From a virus: 13,591 bases of DNA. The stretch lies in the UHGV virus genome UHGV-1770993; one strand, written 5' to 3'. Positions 1 to 13,591 of the stretch are shown one piece after another (within the stretch, counting starts at the first letter, position 1; the number at the start of each line of letters is the position of its first letter). The notes below the pieces were generated by a model, which ran no database searches, was not told the DNA's origin, and saw nothing but the letters and a program-made list of their open reading frames with translations. The position numbers and the translations under genes are program-made.

Positions 1-86
1 TGTGAGTCATATTCGCCCTGACTTTCCAGAACCATACGGACTGCCCGTTGACGGACTTCAGGGGAAAAACGAGTATTTTTAGTCAT
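1..86 (-). CDS. IS3-family transposase OrfA, N-terminal fragment (runs off the window)
   Basis: ATG at 86-84 on the minus strand; translation MTKNTRFSPEVRQRAVRMVLESQGEYDSQ matches my recollection of the IS629/IS1203 OrfA N-terminus. Confidence 0.75.
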   Translation of the reverse strand, partial: MTKNTRFSPEVRQRAVRMVLESQGEYDS

Positions 87-140
87 CCTGTTTACCTCTT
101 TCTCAGGAAGTTTAGTCTCCAGGATTCCCGGGGCGGTTCA
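1..140 (-). mobile_element. Left end of an IS3-family insertion sequence (IS629/IS1203-like), reading out of the window
   Basis: Terminal TGAACCGCCCCGGG inverted-repeat end at 140; bases 1-140 are the exact reverse complement of 13452-13591; encodes the OrfA N-terminus MTKNTRFSPEVRQRAVRMVLESQGEYDSQ on the minus strand. Confidence 0.8.
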
Positions 141-171
141 ACCCTTCTTCAGGGCTTAATTTTTAAGAGCG
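141..171 (-). promoter_or_regulatory. nutL: nutL-like N-utilisation site (boxA CGCTCTTA and boxB GCCCTGAAGAAGGGT), directly abutting the IS end
   Basis: Minus strand reads CGCTCTTAAAAATTAAGCCCTGAAGAAGGGT, matching lambda nutL boxA/boxB from memory; the last boxB base is T rather than C at the IS junction. Confidence 0.7.
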
Positions 172-214
172 TCACCTTCATGGTGGTCAGTGCGTCCTGC
201 TGATGGCCTAAAAT

Positions 215-300
215 ATACCTACAGGTAAAACAGCTGTCTATACCTGTAGGTAAATAAAATTGATGTAAGAGTTTACCTGCTTGAATTTTCAGGTAATTAA
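215..300 (-). promoter_or_regulatory. OL/PL-like operator-promoter region with repeated TACC-N4-GGTA repressor sites
   Basis: Palindromic TACCTACAGGTA at 216-227 and TACCTGTAGGTA at 241-252, plus a TTACCTG...CAGGTAA element at 273-297; same motif family as the sites between the repressor and cro. Confidence 0.6.
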
Positions 301-311
301 TTTTTTGGATT

Positions 312-339
312 GATATAAAAAAGCCCGCTTTGCGGGCTG
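312..339 (-). terminator. Rho-independent terminator ending the leftward repressor operon
   Basis: Minus strand reads AGCCCGCAAAGCGGGCTTTTTTATATCA: GC-rich 7-bp stem with 3-nt loop followed by a T-run, just after the stop of the 350-664 gene. Confidence 0.65.
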
Positions 340-349
340 AAAGGAGATG

Positions 350-664
350 TCAGAAGCTATTTGGATTGCTTGGCCATTGCGGCAATTTTGATTCTACTGG
401 GGTGTGTTTGGGTTTGAGTCCGTTTAAGTAGTCAAGACGCTCAATGGCGCATTTATACATAGCAATCTGCTCTGATGACATGTCGTCGTATGACATGCCT
501 TTGAACTTTTTAATTATCGATTCTGCCTCATGTATAAGATGCTTCTTCTTCATGAGTTCAGCTGTATGCTTAGAGCTTACAGGAGATAACTTTGCCCATA
601 TGAAGCAGATGATTACAACAGCGACTACTATGCCGGGTATAAACACTTGCTGCTTTATCCTCAA
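350..664 (-). CDS. Small membrane-anchored protein (104 aa) in the rexAB position downstream of the repressor; function unknown
   Basis: ORF with N-terminal hydrophobic segment VFIPGIVVAVVIICFIWAKL; TTG start overlaps the cI stop (TTGA) with AGGA about 12 nt upstream; followed by the terminator. Confidence 0.55.
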   Translation of the reverse strand: MRIKQQVFIPGIVVAVVIICFIWAKLSPVSSKHTAELMKKKHLIHEAESIIKKFKGMSYDDMSSEQIAMYKCAIERLDYLNGLKPKHTPVESKLPQWPSNPNSF

Positions 665-1347
665 ACTTTTGGCAGATCGTCCTGGTCTACGTACCTGGTG
701 TGTTTCACAATAGCTGAAACAAAATGCATTTTATCAACTTCTTCAACAGGAAGAGTGATTGGGCGGTGATCACTGTTTATGCTACTAAACTGATAATCAC
801 CGTCTCTTGTTTTGTTCATGATCTTTATCATGTTGTGACCGTCTTTGGTCCTTACAAAGACTTCATCACCTGGATGTACTGGCGTATTTGGTTCAATAAC
901 AACATATTCTCCTGACTGAATCCTTGGCCACATGCTGTCACCCTTAACCTTCAGACCGTAAGCATCTTTATCGCCGCTGTAGATGCTTAACCAACCGGAT
1001 CTGAATTCAATCATATCCACTGAGCCATCAACTCCCAAAACGGCTTCACCAATTACCGGAACAAAACCCGCACGAACGTTACCCGCAAACTCAAGATGGT
1101 CTGTAGCTCCAGCTTTACCATCTGCAAGCATGTCCATCCATCCGCGTGGGAGATTAAAAGATTTTTCAATTAGTTCCATCATATCGTCAGCAATGCGTTT
1201 TTTTCCGCTTTTTCCTTCCGGATACAGCATTCTGGAAACGTATGATGGTTCCCTTTCTATTCGACGAGCCAACTCTGAGGCCTTTCCATTACAGAATCGG
1301 TCTCTTATCTCTATCAGCCTTAGTCGTCTTTGTTCGTATTTATCCAT
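661..1347 (-). CDS. cI: cI-type prophage repressor, LexA-like (N-terminal HTH, C-terminal S24 peptidase autocleavage domain)
   Basis: 228-aa ORF divergent from cro; C-terminal GDSM serine motif and downstream lysine typical of S24/LexA-like repressors; flanked by operator arrays on both sides. Confidence 0.85.
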   Translation of the reverse strand: MDKYEQRRLRLIEIRDRFCNGKASELARRIEREPSYVSRMLYPEGKSGKKRIADDMMELIEKSFNLPRGWMDMLADGKAGATDHLEFAGNVRAGFVPVIGEAVLGVDGSVDMIEFRSGWLSIYSGDKDAYGLKVKGDSMWPRIQSGEYVVIEPNTPVHPGDEVFVRTKDGHNMIKIMNKTRDGDYQFSSINSDHRPITLPVEEVDKMHFVSAIVKHTRYVDQDDLPKV

Positions 1348-1364
1348 GATTTAATTCTATCTTT

Positions 1365-1425
1365 GATTACCTGCCGGTAAATAACCTATGGGTATTGATT
1401 TGCTTTTTACCTACAGGTAAACTCA
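1365..1425. promoter_or_regulatory. OR-like operator region with divergent PRM/PR promoters
   Basis: Three TACC-N4-GGTA sites: TTACCTGCCGGTAA 1366-1379, AACCTATGGGTA 1382-1393, TACCTACAGGTA 1408-1419, between the divergent repressor and cro starts. Confidence 0.7.
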
Positions 1426-1455
1426 TCTTATTCAACAACGGGAAGGAGATAGCAA

Positions 1456-1686
1456 ATGGAAGAACTCCGCTTGTATCTGAACTCCCTTTCACTGGAAGAG
1501 CAGAGAGAATTTGCCACCAAGTGCGGAACTTCTATCGGCTATTTGAGGAAAGCACTTAGCCGTAATCATGAATTGGGCGCAGCACTTTGTGTTCTGATTG
1601 AGAAGTTCAGCAATGGTGAAGTGACTCGCAAAGACCTTCATCCGGTTGATTGGGAAAGCATCTGGCCTGAATTAATGGCCGCTTAA
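1456..1686 (+). CDS. cro: Cro-like early regulator (76 aa, HTH)
   Basis: First gene rightward from OR; AGGAG ribosome-binding site at 1444-1448; small HTH-like protein. Confidence 0.7.
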   Translation: MEELRLYLNSLSLEEQREFATKCGTSIGYLRKALSRNHELGAALCVLIEKFSNGEVTRKDLHPVDWESIWPELMAA

Positions 1687-1694
1687 GTTATTAA

Positions 1695-1726
1695 CGCTCT
1701 TACACATCACCGCCCTGAAAAAGGGC
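1695..1726 (+). promoter_or_regulatory. nutR: nutR (boxA CGCTCTTA 1695-1702, boxB GCCCTGAAAAAGGGC 1712-1726)
   Basis: Matches lambda nutR boxA/boxB from memory; boxB is a perfect 5-bp stem hairpin; lies between cro and cII. Confidence 0.8.
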
Positions 1727-1802
1727 ATTACCAGAAACAAATCTCTATGGTTTTGCGTTTCTTTGCGAAGCCAACTCTATCTAATCATTAAGGAAATTAT
1801 CT

Positions 1803-2084
1803 ATGGGTACTATTGCAACTAAAAGCAAGAAAGCGGCTCGCATCGAGTCGGCCTTGCTGAACAAACTGGCACTGATGGGGCAGAAGACATTCGCTCGCGC
1901 GATGGGGGTTCCTGAATACCAGGTAAGCCGATGGAAGAATGGTTTCTTCTCGCAGGTAAGCATGATGCTGGCTGTTCTGGAATACGGAATCGAAGACGAT
2001 GAAATGGCTGAATTGACTAAGCGGCTTGCCGATTACCTGACAAAAGAAAAAGCCCCGAAGAACGGCGAATTCTTCGAGGCCTGA
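1803..2084 (+). CDS. cII: CII transcriptional activator homolog
   Basis: Translation ...[14 protein letters not shown]...SRWK...[17 protein letters not shown] closely resembles lambda CII ([14 protein letters not shown]...SRWK...SMLLAVLEWGVVDDDMA, from memory). Confidence 0.9.
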
Positions 2085-2119
2085 TTGTAGAAAGACTGGA
2101 TCAATCCACAGGAGTCATT

Positions 2120-2266
2120 ATGACAAAACAACTCAGTCCTTACCAGGACAAAATTCACAAACACATACTACGTGATCGCTTCCTGTCCAGCTTCAAGCAG
2201 CCTGGTCGATTCCGGGCTGAGTTGGAAAAAGTGAAGCTGATGCAGAAGGAGAAAGGTCATGAGTAA
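2120..2266 (+). CDS. Small basic protein (48 aa), hypothetical; not in the supplied ORF track
   Basis: ATG 2120 preceded by GGAG at 2111-2114; stop TAA 2264-2266 overlaps the O-like start (ATGAGTAA); [48 protein letters not shown]. Confidence 0.4.
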
Positions 2267-3119
2267 TCTTGCAACCGTAACACATTTAAGGCCTTCACAA
2301 CGGCCTGTGGAGCGTCGTGTGGCAGAAGTTGAAGATGGTTATACCCGTCTTGCAAATGCCCTGTATGAAGAGCTTATCGGCGCAGATTTAACGAAAAATC
2401 AGAGCAAGGTTGCCCACGCCATATGCCGTAAAACATACGGCTACGGTAAAAAGATGGATCGCATCTCTGATAGTCAGTTAGCTCAAATTACCAGGCTGCC
2501 AAGACAGAAGGTAAACAAGGCCAAGAATGAGCTTATCGCGATGAAGGTTATCCTTCGCGAAGGCCAGCAAATCGGGCCTAACAAGAACATCGAGGAATGG
2601 CAAATCGAAGGGTGTCACTACTCTGGTGATAATGTCACTGCATTGGTGACAAAAAGTGTCACCAAAACGGTGACAGCGCTGTCACCAAAACAGGGACACA
2701 CAAAAGAAACTATTACAAAAGAAAAAAGAAATAATAAAAACACTATGTCCGAAAGTGTTCGGACGGAGTGTGAAAAATCACCTGACCGTCACGAAGAAAC
2801 CGACAAGGCATTCGAGGAAATATTCTGGTGTGCAGGCATGCGGAAGGCCGGGAAGAAAAACGCAGCTTCGGCATTCAGAACACAGTTCAGGGAATGGCGT
2901 AAAACTACCAGGGGTACGGCAAGCGAGTTTGCCACGATGCTGGCAGAAGACATCGCATGCAGGAATGGTAAGCAGTTCGGATTCGACAGGTTGTTACCAT
3001 CGAGCTACCTGAACGGTCAGCGCTGGAACGACGAGAAGCCAGAAACTATTCAACCACAATCCAAACCATCATCCGCAATCACCGTATCGAAAACTGGCTA
3101 CGTGTTTTTCGACAGGTGA
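2259..3119 (+). CDS. O: Replication initiator, lambda O-like (N-terminal iteron-binding domain)
   Basis: N-terminal region (...[13 protein letters not shown]...[41 protein letters not shown]...GPNKNIEEW) resembles lambda O from memory; contains internal iterons and an AT-rich tract like ori-lambda. Confidence 0.85.
2620..2745 (+). repeat. Putative replication origin inside the O-like gene: iterons followed by an AT-rich tract
   Basis: Repeated GTGACA/TGTCAC palindromic units (TGTCACTGCATTGGTGACA, GTGTCACCAAAACGGTGACA, GCTGTCACCAAAAC) at about 2627-2691, then the A-rich stretch AAAAGAAACTATTACAAAAGAAAAAAGAAATAATAAAAAC. Confidence 0.65.
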
Positions 3120-3226
3120 ACCATGAAATCAAAAATCAAATCGCTACTGGTCGCTGGTTATAACCACGGCTGGTTAAGTATTTCGTTTGTCGATTTCTGG
3201 TTTAAAAATCTCAATCTGAGGGAATC

Positions 3227-5107
3227 ATGACGCCAAGTGAACTCAGTGACCTGCTTTGGGCGCAGGTTGACAGGGTGGCTCCGCACCTGTTGCCAAACGG
3301 CAAGAAAGAGGGGCATGAGTGGGTTGCCGGTAACGTCAACGGTGACAAGGGAAACAGCCTTAAGGTCAACCTTAGCGGCAAGAAAAAATGGGCTGATTTC
3401 GCTGAGGGAGACGGCGGTGACATGCTTGATTTGTGGATGGCATGTCGTGGAATTAACCTGCATCAGGCTATGCAGGAAGCGAAAGCCTTTCTCGGAATCA
3501 AGGATGACGATCACCATTTCGATGCCAAACGTGAGAAGAAATTCTCCAGACCTGACCGCAAGAAAATCGCCCGCTACGTTACCAGAACAGAATCCCATCT
3601 TGAGTACCTGCAATCGCGTGGCATATCGCCAGAAGTCGTAAAGCGCTACGAGGTTGTCAGCGGCAAGGTGTGGAATGGAGAACGAGAACTTGATGCACTG
3701 GTGCTTCCGTACAAACGCGATGGTGAGTTGTTGCAGGTCAAGCGAATCAGCACTGAGCGACCGGACGGGAAGAAAGTCATTATGGCAGAAGGTGATTGCG
3801 AACCTTGTCTGTTTGGATGGCAGGCTCTGGACGCTGGCGTGAGGGCGGTTGTACTTTGCGAAGGCGAAATTGATTGTATGAGCTATGCGCAATATGGCAT
3901 CTCGGCGTTATCCGTGCCGTTTGGTGGCGGGAAAGGCGCTAAACAGCAGTGGATTGAGTTTGAGTATCACAACCTCGACAGGTTTGAGGAAATATTCATC
4001 TCGATGGACGTTGATGATGTTGGTCGTGAAGCCGCAAGGGAAATCGCAAGCCGACTCGGTGAACATCGTTGCCGTCTTGTTACTCTGCCGTACAAAGACA
4101 TCAACGAATGCCTGATGAACGGTGTTACCGAGGATGAAATCTGGCAGTACATCGGCACGGCATCCTACTTCGATCCTGAAGAACTCTACAGCGCGCGAGA
4201 GTTTTACCAGGACACTATCAACGCTTTCTACGGCAAGCAGCAGTATCTGTTTAATCCACCGTGGGAATCTCTGGCAGATAAATTCCAGTTCCGTGAGGCA
4301 GAGTTGACGCTGGTCAATGGTGTGAACGGTCACGGAAAAACGGAGGTTGTCGGGCATATGGCACTTGAGGCAATGCGTCAGGGTGTGAAGACGTGCATCG
4401 CGTCACTTGAGCTGAAGCCAGGCATTCTCCTTAAGCGACTTACCCGTCAGGCGACGTGCTGCAAGATGCCGCCAGTGCTGGAAATTGACTCTGCATTTAA
4501 ATTTTATGACGAAAGACTTTGGGTGTTTGGCCTGACCGGAACGGCGAAAGCCGACAGGCTGATCGAAATATTCGACTACGCTCGCCGCCGATACGGGATC
4601 CAGTTATTCATCATCGACAGCCTGATGAAATGTGGCATAGGCGACGATGACTATAACGGGCAGAAGGCGTTTGTTGACTCGATTTGCGACTTCAAAAACA
4701 AAACAAACTCCCACGTCATTCTCGTTACTCACTCGCGAAAAGGAGACAGCGAAGAAAAACCAACCGGGAAAATGGACGTAAAAGGCTCTGGAGCGATAAC
4801 AGACCTGACAGACAACCTTTTCATCATCTGGCGTAACAAGGCTCGCGAGAGAGCGTTACAGAGAGTTCAGAGTGGTGAAAAGATGTCAGAGAAGGACGAA
4901 CAGCTACTGGCATCTCCGGCATCTGTTTTGATGCTTGAAAAACAACGTAACGGCGAAGGTTGGGAAGGTGGTGTCCCGTTGTTCCTTGACGAGCAATCGC
5001 ACCAGTTCCTGCAACTTGAATCAGGATCGCCATATAGCTACATCGCCAATATGCCGAAATCGGAATATGACGAGGCGTGGCGACAGGAAAACGTGACGGA
5101 GTATTAA
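3227..5107 (+). CDS. Replicative primase-helicase (Toprim domain fused to a DnaB/RecA-fold SF4 helicase domain)
   Basis: 626-aa ORF; Toprim-like CEGEID and DVDD motifs; Walker A GVNGHGKTE and Walker B LFIIDSLMK in the C-terminal half; occupies the position of lambda P. Confidence 0.8.
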   Translation: MTPSELSDLLWAQVDRVAPHLLPNGKKEGHEWVAGNVNGDKGNSLKVNLSGKKKWADFAEGDGGDMLDLWMACRGINLHQAMQEAKAFLGIKDDDHHFDAKREKKFSRPDRKKIARYVTRTESHLEYLQSRGISPEVVKRYEVVSGKVWNGERELDALVLPYKRDGELLQVKRISTERPDGKKVIMAEGDCEPCLFGWQALDAGVRAVVLCEGEIDCMSYAQYGISALSVPFGGGKGAKQQWIEFEYHNLDRFEEIFISMDVDDVGREAAREIASRLGEHRCRLVTLPYKDINECLMNGVTEDEIWQYIGTASYFDPEELYSAREFYQDTINAFYGKQQYLFNPPWESLADKFQFREAELTLVNGVNGHGKTEVVGHMALEAMRQGVKTCIASLELKPGILLKRLTRQATCCKMPPVLEIDSAFKFYDERLWVFGLTGTAKADRLIEIFDYARRRYGIQLFIIDSLMKCGIGDDDYNGQKAFVDSICDFKNKTNSHVILVTHSRKGDSEEKPTGKMDVKGSGAITDLTDNLFIIWRNKARERALQRVQSGEKMSEKDEQLLASPASVLMLEKQRNGEGWEGGVPLFLDEQSHQFLQLESGSPYSYIANMPKSEYDEAWRQENVTEY

Positions 5108-5191
5108 ATGACCATCTACATCAGTGAGCTTGTAACAGGCCTGCTGGTAATCGCAGGCCTTTTTATTTGGGGGAGAGTAAATCGTGGCTGA
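5108..5191 (+). CDS. Possible 27-aa hydrophobic micropeptide (MTIYISELVTGLLVIAGLFIWGRVNRG)
   Basis: ATG directly abuts the helicase stop (TAAATG); its stop overlaps the GTG start of the next gene; single hydrophobic stretch; too short to be sure. Confidence 0.25.
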   Translation: MTIYISELVTGLLVIAGLFIWGRVNRG

Positions 5192-5390
5192 GTTAATTTT
5201 CTCTGCATTGAGGATTCTCGGTGCTATGTGGATGGTGTCGACGTTCATTGTGGTTGTCGGAAGTTTTGTCCGGTTGGTAGGCGAAGGTAAAGACCTGGTG
5301 GGTGTGCTTTTCGGTAGCATTTTCCTGTGGGTGATTATCGGTGTTATGCCTGTTGTCGTTGCAAAAGTGGCGTGGCGTTTTGTGAGTTGA
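5184..5390 (+). CDS. Small membrane protein with two predicted transmembrane segments (68 aa)
   Basis: GTG start with GGGAGAG ribosome-binding site at 5171-5177; hydrophobic MWMVSTFIVVVGSFV and VLFGSIFLWVIIGVMPVVVA. Confidence 0.5.
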   Translation: MAELIFSALRILGAMWMVSTFIVVVGSFVRLVGEGKDLVGVLFGSIFLWVIIGVMPVVVAKVAWRFVS

Positions 5391-5407
5391 ACTGAGGGTA
5401 AGTACCG

Positions 5408-5764
5408 ATGGACGAATCAAGAAAGAAGTTTGAGGAATACGTTGCCAAAAAATTGAGATTACCATTCGAGATGATAACCGAGGCAAGAAATGGTGATAGG
5501 TACTTCGCATTTTCAAGCATGGATATTCGTCACTCCTTAAATGAGTGGTGGACTTTATGGCAGGCATCGCGAGCAGCTATTGAACTGGATATCGACTGGC
5601 CAGAATCGAATGACGACTTTTGGAAAGATGGTGAAGAAGGTGCTTATGCGATGGGTTATGAGGATGGGCGTGACAAAACGGTAATTGCAGTAATGAAAGC
5701 TATCAGAGCCGCTGGAATTAAAGAGAAGAATTTCGATGAAGCAAACAATATTCCTCCGAACTAA
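5408..5764 (+). CDS. Hypothetical acidic protein (118 aa) in the ren/nin position
   Basis: ORF with GAGGG upstream of the ATG; 29-nt overlap with the ninB start; no family recognised. Confidence 0.55.
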   Translation: MDESRKKFEEYVAKKLRLPFEMITEARNGDRYFAFSSMDIRHSLNEWWTLWQASRAAIELDIDWPESNDDFWKDGEEGAYAMGYEDGRDKTVIAVMKAIRAAGIKEKNFDEANNIPPN

Positions 5765-6146
5765 GCAACAACAGCAAGCCGCAATCAACGCCATCCTCGC
5801 AACACCACTCGATAAAGACAAGCCAGTCACCATCCGCATTACTGACTACAAGCGCAACCTTGACCAGAACGCAAAATTTCACGCGATGCTGGCGGATATC
5901 GCTCGTCAGGTTCAATGGTGCGATAAATGGCTAAAACCAGAACAATGGAAGGTTTTGTTGATCAGCGGTCATGCAGTGGCAACATAACAGGAAGCTGATG
6001 TTTTGCCCGGGCTTGAAGGCGAATACGTCAACATTCGCGAAAGTAGCGCGCAGATGAGTGTGAAGCGTATGGCAAGTCTGATTGAGTACACGACAGCATG
6101 GGCTATTGGTCAGGGTGTCAGATTTACCGACAGGAGGTACGAATGA
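5736..6146 (+). pseudogene. ninB: ninB (Orf-family recombination mediator) interrupted by an in-frame TAA at 5985-5987
   Basis: N-terminal 83 aa resemble lambda NinB (...LDQN.KF.A.L.D..RQV.W...WL); homology continues in the same frame after the TAA ([34 protein letters not shown]...) to the stop at 6144-6146. Confidence 0.7.
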
Positions 6147-6325
6147 GACGACAGCGACGAAGCATCACCGACATCATCTGCGAAAACTGCAAATACCTTC
6201 CAACGAAACGCTCCAGAAATAAACGTAAGCCAATCCCAAAAGAATCTGACGTAAAAACCTTCAATTACACAGCTCACCTGTGGGATATCCGGTGGCTTAG
6301 AGAACGTGCGAGGAAAACAAGGTGA
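6143..6325 (+). CDS. ninE: NinE-like small protein (60 aa)
   Basis: ATG 6143 with GGAGG ribosome-binding site at 6134-6138; [60 protein letters not shown] matches my recollection of lambda NinE. Confidence 0.65.
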
Positions 6326-6492
6326 TTGACCCAAATCGAAGTTACGAACAAGAAAGCGTCGAGCGGGCTTTAACGTGCGCTAACTGCGGTCAGAAGCTGC
6401 ATGTGCTGGAAGTTCACATGTGTGAGCACTGCTGCGCAGAACTGATGAGCGATCCGAATAGCTCAATGTACGAGGAAGAAGACGATGAGTGA
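6322..6492 (+). CDS. ninF: NinF-like small cysteine-rich protein (56 aa); not in the supplied ORF track
   Basis: GTG start overlapping the ninE stop; [56 protein letters not shown] is nearly identical to lambda NinF as I remember it. Confidence 0.65.
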
Positions 6493-6754
6493 TTTCTCTG
6501 AGCTTATTTCCTTCAAAAAAGACAGAGAAGAAATGCGGACTGAATCTGTCTATTACGTTCAACACCGGAATAAACGCTCGGTGCTTGATCAGGAGTTGGT
6601 TATTACCGGAGACCTGGCATTCAGAACATATAAGGCCAGCATGGAAATGAAGGATTTCCCTAAATGTGGTTCTGAAAGAGAAGCCGCGTTAAAGCTGGCT
6701 GAGTGGATGCAGAGAATGGCTGCTGCAATTGAGAATTACTGGAGCGAACCATAA
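6485..6754 (+). CDS. Hypothetical protein (89 aa) in the nin region
   Basis: ORF translationally coupled to its neighbours (start overlaps the ninF stop; its stop overlaps the next start); no family recognised. Confidence 0.5.
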   Translation: MSDFSELISFKKDREEMRTESVYYVQHRNKRSVLDQELVITGDLAFRTYKASMEMKDFPKCGSEREAALKLAEWMQRMAAAIENYWSEP

Positions 6755-7044
6755 TGGCTAACCTACGCAAAGAAGCACGCGGCAGAGAATGCTAGGTACG
6801 TATTTACGGCATATGCAATGGCAATCCTGAAACTACAGTTCTGGCACATTACCGGATGGCTGGAATTTGCGGAACTGGAATGAAGCCTGACGACCTGATC
6901 GGCGCATGGGCTTGTAGTGACTGCCACGCGGAGATCGACCGACGCACCCGGATTCTCGACAACAAAGACGCCAGACTTTACCACCTCGAAGGCGTGATCA
7001 GGACGCAGGCGATACTGCTGAGGGAGGGGAAGATTAAGCCATGA
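6754..7044 (+). pseudogene. ybcO: ybcO-like (DUF1364) gene with an in-frame amber codon at codon 14 (TAG 6793-6795)
   Basis: Reading through the TAG gives MANLRKEARGREC*VRIYGICNGNPETTVLAHYRMAGICGTG...CSDCHAEIDRRT..., collinear with DLP12 YbcO (MADLRKAARGRECQVRIPGVCNGNPETSVLAH..., from memory), where the stop aligns to a Gln. Confidence 0.7.
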
Positions 7045-7403
7045 ACGAATATCAGTTTGTGCTTCCATACCCGCCGTCGGTGAATACCTACTGGCGAAGA
7101 CGGGGAAGCCAATACTACATCAGCGATAAAGGCCAGAAATACCGAAAAGACGTTCAGCAAATCATCCGCCAACTTAAGTTAGACATTTTCACCAAATCAC
7201 GACTCCGCATCAAAGTCATCGTAGACGTTCCGGACTCCCGCCGTCGCGACCTCGACAACATCCTGAAAGGTTTACTCGACTCCCTTATCCACGCCGGATT
7301 TGCGGAAGACGACGAGCAATTCGATGACATTCGCGTAATTCGTGGCGTGAAAGTACCAGGCGGAAGGCTTGGAATAAAAATCACCGAACTGGAGAACGCA
7401 TGA
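7041..7403 (+). CDS. rusA: RusA Holliday-junction resolvase
   Basis: 120-aa ORF with the RusA-like motif PDSRRRDLDNILKGLLDSL and C-terminal GGRLGIKITE; ATGA overlaps with both neighbours. Confidence 0.85.
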   Translation: MNEYQFVLPYPPSVNTYWRRRGSQYYISDKGQKYRKDVQQIIRQLKLDIFTKSRLRIKVIVDVPDSRRRDLDNILKGLLDSLIHAGFAEDDEQFDDIRVIRGVKVPGGRLGIKITELENA

Positions 7404-7588
7404 ACGCCACAATTCAAACGATACCAGAGCTTCTTATCCAGACACGAGGCAATCAGACCGAAGTGGCAAGGATGCTTTCCTGCGCAAGAGGAACAGTGCT
7501 CAAGTACAACCGAGACAGCAAAGGCGAGCGTCACGTAATAGTTAACGGCGTCCTGATGGTCAAACAGGGCAAAAGGGGAAGGCCATGA
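7400..7588 (+). CDS. ninH: NinH-like protein (62 aa)
   Basis: ...TIPELLIQTRGNQTEVARMLSCARGTVLKYNRDSKGERHVIVNGVLMV resembles lambda NinH (...TIPDMLVEAYGNQTEVARRLKCSRGTVRKY..., from memory); its stop overlaps the Q start. Confidence 0.7.
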   Translation: MNATIQTIPELLIQTRGNQTEVARMLSCARGTVLKYNRDSKGERHVIVNGVLMVKQGKRGRP

Positions 7589-8208
7589 GACTCGAAAGCG
7601 CAGCTAAATTTCATTCGCCAAAAAGCCCGATGATGAGCGACTCACCACGGGCTACGGCTTCTGACTCTCTTTCCGGTACTGATGTGATGGCTGCTATGGG
7701 GATGGCGCAATCACAAGCCGGATTCGGAATGGCTGCATTCTGTGGTAAGCACGAACTCAGCCAGAACGACAAACAAAAGGCTATCAACTATCTGATGCAA
7801 TTTGCACACAAGGTATCGGGGAAATACCGTGGCGTTGCAAAGCTTGAAGGAAATACTAAGGCAAAGGTACTGCAAGTGCTCGCAACATTCGCTTATGCGG
7901 ATTATTGCCGTAGTGCCGCGACGCCGGGCGCAAGATGCAGAGATTGCCACGGTACAGGCCGTGCGGTTGATATAGCCAAAACAGAGCAGTGGGGGAGAGT
8001 TGTTGAGAAAGAGTGCGGAAGATGCAAAGGTGTCGGCTATTCAAGAATGCCAGCAAGCGCCGCATATCGCGCTGTAACGATGCTAATCCCAAACCTTACT
8101 CAACCCACCTGGTCACGCACTGTTAAGCCGCTGTATGACGCTCTGGTGGTGCAATGCCACAAAGAAGAGTCAATCGCAGACAACATTTTGAATGCGGTCA
8201 CACGTTAA
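7585..8208 (+). CDS. Q: Late-gene antiterminator Q, lambda type
   Basis: 207-aa translation (MRLESAAKFHSPKSPMMSDSPRATASDSLSG...CRDCHGTGRAVD...) is essentially identical to lambda Q as I remember it; followed by PR'/qut. Confidence 0.92.
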   Translation: MRLESAAKFHSPKSPMMSDSPRATASDSLSGTDVMAAMGMAQSQAGFGMAAFCGKHELSQNDKQKAINYLMQFAHKVSGKYRGVAKLEGNTKAKVLQVLATFAYADYCRSAATPGARCRDCHGTGRAVDIAKTEQWGRVVEKECGRCKGVGYSRMPASAAYRAVTMLIPNLTQPTWSRTVKPLYDALVVQCHKEESIADNILNAVTR

Positions 8209-8250
8209 CAGCATGATTGCCACGGATGGCAACATATTAACGGCATAATA

Positions 8251-8290
8251 TTGACTTTTTGAATAAAGTTGGGTAAATTTGACCCAACGA
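8251..8290 (+). promoter_or_regulatory. Late promoter PR' with overlapping qut site
   Basis: -35 TTGACT at 8251-8256, 17-bp spacer, -10 TAAATT at 8274-8279; the sequence is near-identical to the lambda PR' region from memory. Confidence 0.8.
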
Positions 8291-8480
8291 TGGGTTAATT
8301 CGCTCGTTGTGGTAGTGAGATGAAAAGAGGCGGCGCTTACTACCGATTCCGCCTAGTTGGTCACTTCGACGTATCGTCTGGAACTCCAACCATCGCAGGC
8401 TGAGAGGTCTGCAAAATGCAATCCCGAAACAGTTCGCAGGTAATAGTTAGAGCCTGCACAACGGTTTCGGGATTTTTTAT
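8286..8480 (+). ncRNA. 6S-like PR' leader RNA ending at the tR' intrinsic terminator (hairpin 8422-8471 plus T-run 8473-8479)
   Basis: Region matches the lambda 6S RNA/tR' sequence from memory; CCCGAAAC...GGTTTCGGG stem followed by TTTTTTAT. Confidence 0.7.
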
Positions 8481-8482
8481 TT

Positions 8483-8557
8483 GGGTCAGTCGTATAAAGG
8501 TCATTACGGAAGGCTGTTAACCTTCTTATCGTGGTTCGAGTCCACGCTGTCCCGCCA
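8483..8557 (+). tRNA. tRNA-like gene, anticodon GTT (Asn) by manual folding
   Basis: Cloverleaf by eye: acceptor GGGTCAG/CTGTCCC (6 of 7 pairs), anticodon stem GAAGG/CCTTC with loop CTGTTAA, T-arm CGTGG-TTCGAGT-CCACG, discriminator G and encoded CCA; the D-arm is irregular. Confidence 0.45.
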
Positions 8558-8562
8558 AATAT

Positions 8563-8638
8563 GCTGGTTTAGCTCCAATGGTAGAGCGGTCGCCTTGTAA
8601 GCGAATGGGTAGCGGTTCAAGTCCGTTAACCAGCACCA
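8563..8638 (+). tRNA. tRNA gene, anticodon TGT (Thr) by manual folding, 76 nt with encoded CCA
   Basis: Acceptor GCTGGTT/AACCAGC (7 pairs), D-arm GCTC-CAATGGTA-GAGC, anticodon loop CTTGTAA, T-arm AGCGG-TTCAAGT-CCGTT, discriminator A, CCA. Confidence 0.65.
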
Positions 8639-8880
8639 TAACTGAGCCGTAGCCACTGGCTATCCTGAACTCATCAGTGATAGTTACGCTGCGGCCTTCT
8701 ACACATGACCTTCGTGAAAGCGGGTGGCAAGAGGCTGCGCTAACAACCTCCTGCCGTTTTGCCCGTGCATATCGGTCACGAACAAATCTGATTACTAAAC
8801 ACAGTAGCCTGGATTTGTTCTATCAGTAATAGACCTTATTCCTAATTAAATAGAGCAAATCCCCTTATTGGGGGTAAGAC

Positions 8881-9204
8881 ATGAAGATGCCAGAAAAACA
8901 TGACCTGTTAGCCGCCATTCTCGCGGCAAAGGAACAAGGCATCGGGGCAATCCTTGCGTTTGCAATGGCGTACCTTCGCGGCAGATATAATGGCGGTGCG
9001 TTTACAAAAACAGTAATCGACGCAACGATGTGCGCCATTATCGCCTGGTTCATTCGTGACCTTCTCGACTTCGCCGGACTAAGTAGCAATCTCGCTTATA
9101 TAACGAGCGTGTTCATCGGCTACATCGGTACTGACTCGATTGGTTCGCTTATCAAACGCTTCGCTGCTAAAAAAGCCGGAGTAGAAGATGGTGGAAATCA
9201 ATAA
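8881..9204 (+). CDS. S: Holin/antiholin S (class I holin, dual-start motif MKM)
   Basis: 107-aa translation [41 protein letters not shown]... matches lambda S from memory; dual start codons Met1/Met3 are present. Confidence 0.92.
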
Positions 9205-9664
9205 TCAACGTAAGGCGTTCCTCGATATGCTGGCGTGGTCAGAAGGAACAGATAACGGACGGCAGAAAACCAGAAATCACGGTTATGACGTCATTGTAGG
9301 CGGAGAGCTATTCACTGATTACTCCGATCACCCTCGCAAACTTGTCACGCTAAACCCCAAACTCAAATCAACAGCAGCCGGACGTTACCAGCTTCTTTCC
9401 CGTTGGTGGGATGCCTATCGTAAGCAGCTTGGCCTGAAAGACTTCTCTCCCAAAAGCCAGGACGCTGTTGCGCTGCAGCAGATTAAGGAACGTGGCGCTT
9501 TGCCGATGATTGATCGCGGTGATATCCGTCAGGCTATCGACCGTTGCAGCAACATCTGGGCTTCACTGCCGGGGGCTGGTTATGGTCAGTTCGAGCATAA
9601 GGCTGACAGCCTGATTGCAAAATTCAAAGAGGCTGGCGGAACGGTCAGAGAGATTGAGGTATGA
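9188..9664 (+). CDS. R: Endolysin R (lytic transglycosylase)
   Basis: 158-aa translation [42 protein letters not shown]... is near-identical to lambda R from memory. Confidence 0.92.
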
Positions 9665-10128
9665 GCAGAGTCACCGCGATTATCTCTGCTCTGGTTATCT
9701 GCATCATCGTCTGCCTGTCATGGGCTGTTAATCATTACCGTGATAACGCCATCGCCTACAAAGAACAGCGTGATAAAAAAGTCAGTGAGCTGAAGCAGGC
9801 GGCCGCCACCATTACTGACATGCAGCGACGCCAGCGTGCTGCTGATGCACTCGATGCTAAATACACGAAGGAGTTAGCTGATGCGAAAGCTGAAAATGAT
9901 GCTCTTCGGCGCAAGCTTGATAATGGTGGCAGGGTGCTCGTCAAAGGAAAATGCCCTGTGCCATCCTCAGCCGAAACCTCCGGCGCCTCCGGCATGGGCA
10001 ATGATGCCACCGTCGAACTCTCTCCAGTTGCTGGACGAAACGTTCTCGGTGTCCGGGACGGAATTATCCGCGACCAAACAGCACTGAGAACGCTTCAGGA
10101 ATACATCAGGACGCAATGCCTTCGATGA
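9661..10128 (+). CDS. Rz: Inner-membrane spanin Rz
   Basis: N-terminal [31 protein letters not shown] is identical to lambda Rz from memory; the C-terminal half is diverged but still coiled-coil-like. Confidence 0.85.
9881..10087 (+). CDS. Rz1: Outer-membrane lipoprotein spanin Rz1, embedded in the +1 frame of Rz
   Basis: [21 protein letters not shown]... has a signal peptide with lipobox VAGC and a proline-rich [11 protein letters not shown] segment like lambda Rz1. Confidence 0.75.
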
Positions 10129-10303
10129 TAGCGATAATTTTACTCATCATCCTTCACATCTGGCTCTGTAGACAGGGTGATGATCACTTCTGGAGTGAAT
10201 CCAGATTAAACATCTCATTGCTGATGCTTGATATTGAGCATCTTGCGCGCAGTAAGGGGCTGCGTTGAGATAAGAGCCAGTTCATTACAAATACCAGGAT
10301 TTA

Positions 10304-10328
10304 GCCTCGCATTCGCGGGGCTTTTTAT
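10304..10328 (+). terminator. Rho-independent terminator downstream of the lysis cassette
   Basis: GCCTCGC-ATTC-GCGGGGC hairpin followed by TTTTTAT. Confidence 0.6.
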
Positions 10329-10470
10329 ATCTGAATTTCACAGCGCATCTCACGCGCATATTAACGAGAGCCTTTCAGTAAGCGAGCCTGAGAAATGCCG
10401 TTATAGGTGGCGACCTCTCTCGGGCGGCTTTTCTGTGAGACAGGCTCACTTTCTAAAAGGTAAAGACGCT

Positions 10471-10995
10471 ATGAATAATCATTCAGTTATTCCAGCCTTC
10501 GACTTCCGAGAAATGGTGCAAGCCAAAAACGGAGAGGTCGTTACCACATCCAGAAAAATTGCCAAGTACTTCGGCAAGCGACACGGTGATGTTCTCAGGA
10601 AAATCGAGCAGGTTAAGGCTGATTGCTCGCGTGAGTTTAGCCAACGCAATTTTGCGTCGGCTGATTATATCGATGAGCAGGGCAAGGTTCGCCCGATGTA
10701 CAGCCTGACGAAAGATGGCTGGATCATGGTTGTGATGGGGTTCACCGGGAAAGCTGCTGCGGCAATCAAGGAGAGCTATATCGCAGCATTCAACTGGATG
10801 GCAGAGCAACTGAGCCGCCGCATGGCAATTGGCGAAGAAATGCAGCACCGCTACGCCATCAAAGAAACACGCTCAAAGCTGAAAGGTACGATCGGCAGTC
10901 GGTTAATGAACGAACGGAAGAAAGAGAAGCGTGTCCTGGCTGTCGAGCATGAATACATCTTGCAGGTGACACAGCCTGAACTGCTGATTAATTGA
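10471..10995 (+). CDS. rha: Rha-family phage regulatory protein
   Basis: From ATG 10471: MNNHSVIPAFDFREMVQAKNGEVVTTSRKIAKYFGKRHGDVLRKIEQ... fits the Rha N-terminal domain pattern; the upstream in-frame extension to 10228 spans a terminator hairpin and was rejected. Confidence 0.7.
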   Translation: MNNHSVIPAFDFREMVQAKNGEVVTTSRKIAKYFGKRHGDVLRKIEQVKADCSREFSQRNFASADYIDEQGKVRPMYSLTKDGWIMVVMGFTGKAAAAIKESYIAAFNWMAEQLSRRMAIGEEMQHRYAIKETRSKLKGTIGSRLMNERKKEKRVLAVEHEYILQVTQPELLIN

Positions 10996-11295
10996 AGATG
11001 TCATTACAAAGCCTATCTACGGGTGGGCTTGATAATGAAACCGGAGTTAATTTCTGGTCACTAATTAACGGCAGTACAGCGAAACAACCCAAGCCAGTAA
11101 GTGGGGAAATAACACTGGCAGCCACTGAAAGATGAACCTCCTGCCTTATGGCAAAAAAGATTCTTTGTGGTGGCGGACTGATGGAAAGACATCGGTTATT
11201 GCAGAGACCATTCAATGAGTGGTCTCGACAATGGCTTATACCCTACACGGGATAACTTAACTGATATCCCTTTTAACGGATAAACGGAGCCAACA

Positions 11296-11538
11296 ATGGC
11301 AGAGATTATTCCCATGACTGAAGAACAGAAATTCCAGTTAGAGATTTACAAGCTGGTCATGAACCAGAACGCAGCCGCAGAAGAAGCATTTCAATTCATC
11401 GGCACTGACGAGTTGAAGCTTGAGCTATTCAAAATTCACTTCCAGTCAGGCGGCGCTAATTCAGATATCACTACCCGCACTATCGAAGCGGTGCGTAAAT
11501 CGAAGGAAGCGTTATACCTGTTCACCACCGGAGCATAA
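11296..11538 (+). CDS. Hypothetical protein (80 aa) immediately upstream of the terminase genes
   Basis: ORF with GGAG upstream (11283-11286); stop 3 nt before the terS start; no family recognised. Confidence 0.5.
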   Translation: MAEIIPMTEEQKFQLEIYKLVMNQNAAAEEAFQFIGTDELKLELFKIHFQSGGANSDITTRTIEAVRKSKEALYLFTTGA

Positions 11539-11540
11539 AC

Positions 11541-11981
11541 ATGGCGCGCCCAACAAAGTATCAAGAGGCGTATGCCGAACAGGCACGCAAACTGTGCTTG
11601 CTGGGCTACACCGATGCAGAGCTTGCTGATTTCTTCGAAGTCAGTGAGTCAACTATTAACAAGTGGAAGCTTGATTATCCTGAGTTTTCGGAGTCCATAA
11701 AAAAGGGTAAGGCCGTCGCTGATGCAGAAGTTAGTGACCGTCTTTATCAACGCGCTATGGGCTTCGTGGCTCCAGACATCGATATTCGTGTTATTGAAAA
11801 CAGAATTGTCGAAACTCCGCTTGAGAAGTATTACCCGCCTGATACAACTGCCGCCATCTTCTGGCTTAAGAACCGACAGAAGGATAAATGGCGCGACAAG
11901 GTTGATCACGAGCTAACAGGCAAAGACGGCGGCGCAATTCAGATTGAAACATCACCGATGAGCACTCTGTTCGGAAAATGA
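11541..11981 (+). CDS. terS: Terminase small subunit (HTH-containing)
   Basis: 146-aa ORF immediately upstream of and overlapping (ATGA) the large-terminase gene; N-terminal HTH-like segment LGYTDAELADFFEVSESTINKWK. Confidence 0.75.
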   Translation: MARPTKYQEAYAEQARKLCLLGYTDAELADFFEVSESTINKWKLDYPEFSESIKKGKAVADAEVSDRLYQRAMGFVAPDIDIRVIENRIVETPLEKYYPPDTTAAIFWLKNRQKDKWRDKVDHELTGKDGGAIQIETSPMSTLFGK

Positions 11982-13393
11982 CCTCGATTAATCCTATCTT
12001 TGAACCGTTCATTGAGGCGCATCGCTACAAAGTCGCCAAAGGCGGTCGAGGTAGCGGTAAATCATGGGCAATTGCGAGGCTGCTTGTTGAAGCGGCGCGT
12101 CGTCAGCCAGTGCGTATTCTTTGCGCTCGTGAACTGCAAAACAGTATCAGCGATTCGGTAATCCGGCTGCTTGAAGACACCATCGAGCGTGAAGGATATT
12201 CGGCTGAGTTTGAAATTCAGCGTTCAATGATTCGTCATCTCGGAACGAATGCTGAATTCATGTTCTACGGCATCAAAAACAACCCGACGAAGATTAAATC
12301 GCTCGAAGGTATTGATATCTGCTGGGTGGAAGAAGCGGAAGCGGTAACGAAGGAATCATGGGATATCCTGATACCAACCATCCGTAAGCCGTTCTCTGAA
12401 ATATGGGTGAGCTTTAACCCGAAGAACATACTCGACGATACCTATCAGCGATTCGTCGTAAATCCTCCTGATGATATTTGCCTGTTGACGGTGAACTACA
12501 CCGACAACCCGCACTTTCCTGAAGTTCTCCGTCTGGAGATGGAAGAGTGTAAACGCAGAAATCCGACACTGTATCGTCACATCTGGCTTGGTGAGCCAGT
12601 GAGCGCAAGTGATATGGCAATTATCAAACGTGAATGGCTTGAAGCCGCAACCGATGCGCACAAGAAACTCGGATGGAAAGCGAAAGGCGCTGTTGTCTCT
12701 GCGCATGACCCATCAGATACAGGGCCAGATGCTAAAGGTTATGCATCGCGTCACGGTTCGGTAGTTAAGCGCATTGCCGAAGGTCTGCTGATGGACATCA
12801 ACGAGGGTGCTGACTGGGCTACTTCGCTGGCGATTGAAGACGGCGCTGACCATTACCTGTGGGATGGTGATGGTGTTGGTGCCGGGCTACGCAGACAGAC
12901 AACGGAAGCGTTTTCCGGCAAGAAAATCACCGCCACGATGTTCAAGGGCAGCGAATCGCCATTCGATGAAGATGCACCGTATCAAGCCGGAGCATGGGCT
13001 GATGAAGTCGTACAGGGTGACAACGTTCGCACTATTGGCGATGTGTTCCGCAATAAGCGAGCACAATTCTATTACGCGCTGGCTGACAGGCTGTATCTGA
13101 CATATCGGGCGGTTGTCTACGGTGAGTATGCAGACCCCGACGACATGCTGAGCTTCGACAAAGAAGCGATAGGCGAGAAGATGCTGGAGAAGCTGTTTGC
13201 AGAATTGACGCAGATTCAGCGCAAATTCAATAACAACGGGAAGCTGGAGCTAATGACTAAGGTCGAAATGAAGCAGAAGCTCGGTATTCCATCTCCTAAC
13301 CTGGCTGATGCGCTGATGATGTGTATGCATTGCCCGGAGTCGGCTGCGCAACCCGACTATTCCAGTTACTCAATTCCTTGTGGTGTAGGTTGA
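11978..13393 (+). CDS. terL: Terminase large subunit, PBSX-family (pac-type) ATPase/nuclease
   Basis: 471-aa ORF with Walker A KGGRGSGKSWA, Walker B-like ICWVEEAEA, and C-terminal acidic nuclease-like residues. Confidence 0.88.
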   Translation: MTSINPIFEPFIEAHRYKVAKGGRGSGKSWAIARLLVEAARRQPVRILCARELQNSISDSVIRLLEDTIEREGYSAEFEIQRSMIRHLGTNAEFMFYGIKNNPTKIKSLEGIDICWVEEAEAVTKESWDILIPTIRKPFSEIWVSFNPKNILDDTYQRFVVNPPDDICLLTVNYTDNPHFPEVLRLEMEECKRRNPTLYRHIWLGEPVSASDMAIIKREWLEAATDAHKKLGWKAKGAVVSAHDPSDTGPDAKGYASRHGSVVKRIAEGLLMDINEGADWATSLAIEDGADHYLWDGDGVGAGLRRQTTEAFSGKKITATMFKGSESPFDEDAPYQAGAWADEVVQGDNVRTIGDVFRNKRAQFYYALADRLYLTYRAVVYGEYADPDDMLSFDKEAIGEKMLEKLFAELTQIQRKFNNNGKLELMTKVEMKQKLGIPSPNLADALMMCMHCPESAAQPDYSSYSIPCGVG

Positions 13394-13395
13394 TA

Positions 13396-13451
13396 TGGCA
13401 GAAAAAAAGATGACTGACTGGCATCGCAAGGTGCTGTGCAACTTTGATAAT
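13396..13451 (+). pseudogene. First 18 codons of the gene after terL (presumably portal), truncated by IS insertion
   Basis: ATG 13396 three nt after the terL stop, MAEKKMTDWHRKVLCNFDN, then the IS end begins at 13452. Confidence 0.35.
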
Positions 13452-13591
13452 TGAACCGCCCCGGGAATCCTGGAGACTAAACTTCCTGAGAAAGAGGTAA
13501 ACAGGATGACTAAAAATACTCGTTTTTCCCCTGAAGTCCGTCAACGGGCAGTCCGTATGGTTCTGGAAAGTCAGGGCGAATATGACTCACA
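13452..13591 (+). mobile_element. Left end of an IS3-family insertion sequence (IS629/IS1203-like), reading out of the window
   Basis: TGAACCGCCCCGGGAATCCTGGAGACTAAAC... terminal repeat; exact reverse complement of 1-140; OrfA start at 13506. Confidence 0.8.
13506..13591 (+). CDS. IS3-family transposase OrfA, N-terminal fragment (runs off the window)
   Basis: GGT/AGG ribosome-binding site then ATG 13506; MTKNTRFSPEVRQRAVRMVLESQGEYDSQ. Confidence 0.75.
   Translation, partial: MTKNTRFSPEVRQRAVRMVLESQGEYDS

Follow-up and report, generated by a model that had tools for sequence, protein, structure and literature searches.

We found that the ybcO-family gene of a lambdoid prophage carried by Escherichia coli is interrupted by an amber codon at codon 14. 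We conclude, with a probability of roughly 0.87, that this Q14amber allele represents a C-to-T change at a mutational hotspot that has been inherited clonally and constitutes an early step of ordinary prophage decay. The gene (positions 6754–7044, plus strand) was identified through Pfam, PDB 3g27, and homologs as a member of the DUF1364/PF07102 family of predicted His-Me finger nucleases. Its amber codon (TAG 6793–6795, plus strand) contains a T at 6793 that derives from C, as judged from near-identical prophages. We propose a model in which the inner C of a Dcm site (CCAGG) would have been methylated and then deaminated to T, escaping very-short-patch repair. The C-to-T change at 6793 converted the CAG codon for Gln14 to TAG; translation would end immediately beyond the conserved Cys13, at a length of 13 residues, leaving the gene effectively off. 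The TAG allele was then inherited clonally with the prophage. Later steps in the source of the DNA analyzed here were an ochre mutation in ninB, followed by insertions of IS3-family elements into the portal gene and the leader between pL and N. With this lesion, ybcO is a nonsense pseudogene of an ordinary kind, one that already exists in sequenced genomes and whose mutational origin is familiar from textbooks.

The entire stretch of DNA that was analyzed, referred to here as the window, comprises 13,591 bp and is identical to MEGAHIT contig ENA ERZ27234353:k141_588. Positions 141–13451 belong to a mosaic, P22-like lambdoid prophage and cover its early-right, nin, Q, lysis, and terminase regions. 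The left part contains cI (661–1347, minus strand), a cro-like gene, cII, O, a gene for a toprim primase-helicase, ninB, ninE, and ninF. These genes are followed by an ORF of 89 amino acids, ybcO, rusA, ninH, Q, genes for tRNA-Asn and tRNA-Thr, and genes for holin, endolysin, and Rz; next come Rha, terS, and terL and then codons 1–19 of the portal gene. The nearest sequenced phages are vB_EcoP-720R6, mEp043, phiv205-1, Sf101, and HK620, with coverage of 49–69% and identity of 95–99%. Carriers of the prophage are human extraintestinal E. coli. One of these, PA45B, carries the intact ybcO allele and is a urosepsis isolate of ST95 and phylogroup B2 (PMC5654933); the sources of the others are human blood, urine, or gut. 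The prophage copy in HH97 (NZ_CP116409.1) is 98.7% identical to that in the window, and its annotation includes frameshifts in cI and the toprim primase-helicase gene as well as truncated cII and DUF2740. The frameshifted genes may reflect either real decay or indel errors of long-read sequencing.

The amber codon lies in the frame that extends from ATG 6754 to TGA 7042–7044, and window ybcO therefore does not contain an uninterrupted frame of ~96 codons. If codon 14 is translated as Gln, the 96-residue product matches PF07102 (YbcO) with an E value of 2e-43 over model positions 2–91 of 92; the score of 146.8 bits lies well above the Pfam gathering threshold of 29.9. PDB 3g27, which contains Gln at position 14, aligns with window YbcO from residues 1–95 to 1–95 (E = 4.9e-37). 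Judged from these alignments, the collinearity of window YbcO with the family is far above chance. Of the 1251 homologs in the database, the best 120 were examined, and 93 of these have a length of exactly 96 residues. Among the 117 members of this set with a residue at the position, 116 carry Cys13 and 112 carry Gln14; L4, K6, A8, R11, and R16 are likewise conserved within the set. The frame in the window encodes the complete set of Cys13, Cys21, His32, and Cys54-x2-Cys57-His58, all of which are invariant or nearly so in the 120 homologs as well as in an alignment of 42 YbcO sequences; Cys13 is invariant in the latter. The N-terminal conservation indicates that the N-terminus of YbcO is part of the domain and that homologs do not start downstream of the lesion. 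These results bear out a preliminary description of this DNA, which had proposed a full-length 96-residue ybcO-like frame in which TAG at codon 14 replaces a Gln found in homologs. They also dispose of the objection, raised in the same description, that homologs might naturally begin downstream of this point. Window ybcO is a member of PF07102 by descent but a nonsense pseudogene.

YbcO has been described as a treble-clef zinc finger of the His-Me finger (HNH-like) class, whose nuclease activity is predicted only (PMC4999995, PMC5714182). The assignment of window YbcO to the His-Me finger class rests on these published analyses of 3g27; an AlphaFold2 model built from the 42-sequence alignment was poor, with a mean pLDDT of 59. 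In prophages, YbcO typically adjoins rusA and Q (PMC5714182). This neighborhood is retained in the window, in which ybcO lies beside rusA (7041–7403, plus strand), encoding a Holliday-junction resolvase, and Q (7585–8208, plus strand), encoding a Q-type late antiterminator.

We next consider the direction of the change. The prophage segment of 16 complete E. coli genomes differs from the window at four or fewer positions over 13,311 bp. Direct comparison of the window with eight complete genomes revealed C at 6793 (CAG) in PA45B and UPEC129, and T in the window, GN02100, SCU-123, MS21324, AH19E045, AH21H025, and AH20I049. Across positions 141–13451 (13.3 kb), these nine sequences vary at only seven sites, of which two are nonsense, two are missense (cI D16N and Q H10Q), two are synonymous, and one is intergenic. 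The variable sites form a perfectly nested phylogeny in which CAG gives way to TAG, after which either ninB AAA changes to TAA (the window) or Q acquires H10Q. C was also read directly in two more distant relatives, O111 11128 and GCA_031897625.1, and its presence in HH97 is implied by the intact 96-residue annotation of that copy. The nesting of these sites, together with the presence of C in more distant relatives, indicates that CAG is ancestral and that TAG arose once in the lineage of the window. This agrees with the CAG-to-TAG change that had been postulated in the preliminary description. The small number of variable sites also shows that the prophage persisted with hardly any change during a clonal expansion.

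The T at 6793 is not an error of sequencing. Ten closed genomes, determined in different laboratories and countries, are identical to the window over positions 6400–7450 and include this T, which also occurs in three contigs of IMG/VR and in two assemblies made independently. The IMG/VR scan yielded nine matches to the TAG pattern, six of which were removed by identity to ybcO as chance matches in unrelated DNA; the count of IMG/VR contigs with the CAG allele is a lower bound. In a collection of 15 billion proteins, the exact truncated products of 80 and 62 residues occur on 465 and 109 contigs, respectively, and the exact intact 96-residue protein on 421. At least 11 of the 426 complete genomes that match a ybcO 61-mer carry TAG. 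TAG is clonally inherited and, by the protein counts, now makes up close to one half of the occurrences of this ybcO allele.

Alignment of intact alleles revealed that the sequence surrounding the lesion, CTAGG (6792–6796, plus strand), is the remnant of the Dcm site CCAGG and that the mutated base is the inner C, the target of Dcm methylation. The intact alleles of PA45B and O111 11128 read GCCAGGT; the TAG alleles of the window and FORC_042 read GCTAGGT. Deamination of 5-methylcytosine yields T, and changes of CCAGG to CTAGG correspond to the amber hotspots in lacI reported by Coulondre, Miller, Farabaugh, and Gilbert in 1978, as recounted in PMC12606429. One TAG carrier, MS21324, possesses both a dcm gene (1419 nt) and a vsr gene that are intact according to their annotation.

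The ybcO allele of E. coli FORC_042 (NZ_CP025318.1) has the same TAG at codon 14 yet departs from the window allele at nine further positions. This gene (392–682 of the extracted locus) resides in a different prophage, where it is preceded by NinX, NinF, and an ORF of 70 amino acids. The closest intact allele, present in O111:H- 11128 and at least 28 others, is 99.7% identical and differs only at the C in question; the TAG haplotype of FORC_042 is unique among 5426 complete genomes. The nine differences between the FORC_042 allele and the window include markers that flank the mutated base at distances of 16 nt on the upstream side and 18 nt on the downstream side. Because of these markers, gene conversion would require a tract shorter than 34 nt, and independent recurrence appears to be much the simpler reading of the two alleles. 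We consider deamination at the Dcm hotspot to be the probable origin of the amber codon, although two events constitute a small sample. Coincidence or selection, in place of the hotspot, could also account for two independent TAG events.

The amber codon is accompanied by further decay of the prophage. The gene ninB (5736–6146, plus strand), which encodes an orf-family recombination mediator, contains an ochre codon, TAA 5985–5987, in place of AAA for Lys84. This mutation is private to the sub-lineage of the window. It lies 808 nt upstream of the ybcO amber, which accounts for the second nonsense lesion within 1 kb that had been recorded previously. AAA is present at 5985–5987 in eight of eight near-identical complete-genome prophages compared and TAA in none. 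Four independent assemblies contain the ninB TAA, and wherever they cover the ybcO site, it is accompanied by the TAG. Its absence from the eight complete genomes and its presence in four independent assemblies indicate that the ochre mutation is real and occurred later than the amber mutation. In terms of sequence change, the ochre is an A-to-T transversion that does not fall on a hotspot.

Each end of the window is formed by the left terminus of an element of the IS3 family. The copy at 13452–13591 (plus strand) cuts the portal gene after codon 19, and its inverted counterpart at 1–140 (minus strand) lies between a pL-like promoter and N. Only 19 codons of the portal gene (13395–13451) are contained in the window; the gene is intact (2.2 kb) in 16 complete genomes. 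Each IS end measures exactly 140 nt; this length equals k-1 for the MEGAHIT assembly at k=141 and suggests that the phage–IS junctions were the only paths in the assembly graph. The same IS end faces the phage on both sides of the window, representing either two inverted insertions or one IS-mediated rearrangement. The element, which we take to resemble IS629/IS1203, is annotated as IS1203 family in one matching record. The pL-like promoter (TAGACA-17-TATATT; 240–212, minus strand) is flanked by the operator-like palindromes ACCTACAGGT and ACCTGTAGGT (141–260). The left IS junction lies ~65 nt downstream of this promoter and, according to the complete genomes, 198 nt upstream of the start of N, which is located outside the window; this arrangement probably uncouples N from pL. 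The copy of the prophage in the window is defective, and the ybcO amber is an early step in its decay. The preliminary description included neither these IS junctions nor the probable Dcm origin and the clonal spread of the TAG allele.

The position of ybcO within a chain of overlapping genes raises the possibility, suggested in the preliminary description, that the amber codon is polar on rusA and ninH. The 89-residue ORF upstream (6485–6754, plus strand), which has no Pfam match, ends in a TAA that overlaps the ATG of ybcO (TAATG, 6752–6756); among related phages, this slot is variable and contains roi/antirepressor or other genes. Downstream, ATGA overlaps join ybcO to rusA (7041–7044) and rusA to ninH (7400–7588, plus strand; overlap at 7400–7403), as described previously, and ninH is joined in the same manner to Q (7585–7588). 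These stop/start overlaps would permit translational coupling. The Shine-Dalgarno (SD) sequence of rusA, GGGAGGGG (7022–7029, plus strand), lies within the 3′ end of ybcO and has a calculated energy of -11.5 kcal/mol with the anti-SD, although its spacing of 12–13 nt before the ATG is long and suboptimal. Because rusA has a strong SD sequence of its own, polarity on this gene is probably partial; a partial reduction of RusA is plausible and strong polarity that extends to Q appears unlikely. The 246 untranslated nt that follow the amber codon show a modest skew of C over G. Rho-dependent polarity was also considered on the basis of composition, but a mild C-rich stretch at 6920–6999 was the only feature of this kind and is not decisive. 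Transcription modified by N in lambdoid phages resists Rho-dependent polarity.

RefSeq annotates an 80-residue DUF1364 CDS, with no pseudogene label, in all TAG genomes examined. This CDS (WP_231527203.1, RefSeq/PGAP; 6802–7044, plus strand) starts at an ATT codon and does not include Cys13. The ATT at 6802 is preceded by a weak and poorly spaced SD sequence (AGGU, -3.7 kcal/mol, 4-nt spacing), and ATG 6856 has essentially none (-1.5 kcal/mol). PGAP selects the same ATT in an unrelated allele that has lost its start codon (GCA_031897625.1), and the 80-residue, ATT-initiated products annotated by RefSeq/PGAP on disrupted ybcO alleles include WP_231527203.1 and WP_249825038.1. The choice of the same ATT in the unrelated allele points to homology-driven annotation, and the 80-residue CDS is most likely an artifact of this kind. 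Databases hold hundreds of copies of this probably non-existent "DUF1364 domain-containing protein". The 80-residue protein of GCA_031897625.1 was itself suspected of representing a second TAG allele. This candidate was rejected; the lesion is an ATG-to-ACG change at the start codon, and the gene, which lies in a related prophage (2950–3243 of the extracted locus), retains CAG and encodes Cys13 with TGT, hence it contains no Dcm site.

We considered three ways in which a functional YbcO might persist in TAG carriers. A sequencing or assembly error that conceals an intact gene would be conceivable for the window itself, which is a MEGAHIT contig. The chance of this is negligible, however, given that the same T is found in all of the closed genomes, assemblies, and IMG/VR contigs enumerated above and is implied by hundreds of deposited truncated proteins. 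The amber codon might also be decoded by a suppressor tRNA of host or phage, or by efficient programmed read-through, so that the gene is expressed conditionally. Near-cognate tRNA-Gln misreads UAG at a low level, and such misreading would restore the wild-type residue. However, ARAGORN identified no suppressor among the phage-borne tRNAs of the window, which are only tRNA-Asn(gtt) (8483–8557) and tRNA-Thr(tgt) (8563–8638), located between Q and the holin gene. In MS21324, the one TAG carrier that was checked, glnV, glnX, and serU have the wild-type anticodons ctg, ctg, and cga with no supE-type change. The supE-type host that the preliminary description raised as a possibility finds no support at these three loci in this carrier. 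A query for the supE-type (CTA) allele found it in 155 of 5424 genomes, and among the 60 matches listed all were K-12 laboratory strains, whose recovery served as a positive control. Moreover, the TAG allele is derived and recent and is unaccompanied by a compensating change in context. We regard suppression as highly improbable. Only slightly less improbable is a functional, N-terminally shortened YbcO that starts at ATT 6802 (80 residues), ATG 6856 (62 residues), or ATG 6880 (54 residues). The RefSeq annotation would favor this explanation, as would the score of the 80-residue fragment against PF07102 (117 bits) and the location of the ATT only 6 nt past the stop, where post-termination re-initiation is conceivable. 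Against it, ATT is a very poor initiator, the SD sequences are weak or essentially absent, and the recurrent choice of this ATT by PGAP extends to an allele with an unrelated lesion. All three products would be devoid of L4, K6, A8, R11, and the Cys13 that is invariant among the 42 aligned sequences, and the 62-residue form would also be devoid of Cys21 and His32. None of the best 120 of 1251 homologs begins naturally at these starts. From the conservation of the residues that are lost, we infer that the TAG allele is effectively off and would yield only traces of read-through or weakly re-initiated products.

A different question is whether the TAG allele was favored by selection, because silencing a nuclease that is costly or toxic would be adaptive, rather than carried along neutrally. 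The same nonsense change arose twice, but the recurrence falls on a known mutational hotspot and the second event, in FORC_042, is a singleton among complete genomes. Other lesions of ybcO exist, such as the loss of the start codon in GCA_031897625.1 and database entries with aberrant N- or C-termini; nevertheless, lesions are rare overall, as illustrated by the small number of genomes matching the 61-mer that carry TAG. The share of TAG in sightings of the allele, about half, is explained by clonal expansion within the nested phylogeny. Of all coding substitutions that could occur in the window, approximately 4.4% would introduce a stop codon; two of the six coding SNPs are nonsense (P ~0.026). 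This excess was not taken to indicate selection, since the lesions were the reason for choosing the window and the statistic is biased accordingly. In the lysogen, ybcO is part of a repressed operon, leaving little for selection to act on. Selection is therefore unlikely, and a neutral hotspot mutation combined with clonal expansion would be sufficient for the data. It is tempting to view the in-frame Dcm site at the CAG codon as a mutational fuse, a recurrent and favored off-switch that silences ybcO and in part rusA in lysogens; we consider this idea more doubtful still than selection in general.

The preferred reading, hotspot mutation followed by clonal inheritance and decay, carries little biological weight, and its practical value lies in an annotation caveat and a lineage marker. 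The SNP at 6793 marks a sub-clade of the prophage in ST95-type extraintestinal E. coli and could be used as such a marker. The locus also provides a clean case from nature in which the textbook Dcm amber hotspot has probably acted on an accessory gene of a prophage, and it illustrates stepwise prophage decay through amber, ochre, and IS insertions.

The amber codon of ybcO resembles the Dcm amber hotspots of lacI (1978) in that a G:C-to-A:T transition at the second C of CCAGG gives CTAGG, the product is an in-frame amber, and the event recurs independently. The two cases differ in that the lacI mutants belong to a laboratory collection, whereas the present lesion occurs in a prophage gene in natural populations, where methylation of the Dcm site is predicted from its sequence. 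YbcO of DLP12/phage 82 (PDB 3g27) shares with window YbcO its length of 96 residues, its set of Cys and His residues, and its location just upstream of rusA and Q (PMC5714182); unlike that protein, the window copy is an amber pseudogene in a P22-like mosaic prophage. By profile comparison, the closest characterized relative of YbcO is Ref of phage P1 (PDB 3plw), a RecA-dependent nuclease of the HNH family (PMC4999995). Ref and YbcO are both small His-Me finger proteins of phages with roles linked to recombination; their similarity in the published profile comparison is remote, and the activity of YbcO is predicted only (PMC4999995). The intact ybcO genes of HK620 (HkbD), mEp235, ECP1, phiv205-1, HK97, and HK022, labeled "HNH endonuclease" or DUF1364 in RefSeq, reside in ninF-ybcO-rusA-ninH blocks with the same gene order and 95.7–97.5% nucleotide identity to the window. 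In the collection of phage records, no entry exceeded 97.5% identity to this block and the exact TAG haplotype was absent; all sightings of this haplotype come from prophages or from viral contigs of metagenomic or genomic origin. The nin region of lambda (nin5; orf/ninB, rap/ninG) can be removed without abolishing phage growth. The lesions in the window fall within the same accessory recombination block, between the replication genes and Q, and the orf homolog ninB is also mutated; the silent rusA of DLP12 is a comparable case. Unlike lambda nin5, which is a deletion, the window contains point nonsense mutations, and its phage has ybcO and rusA in place of rap.
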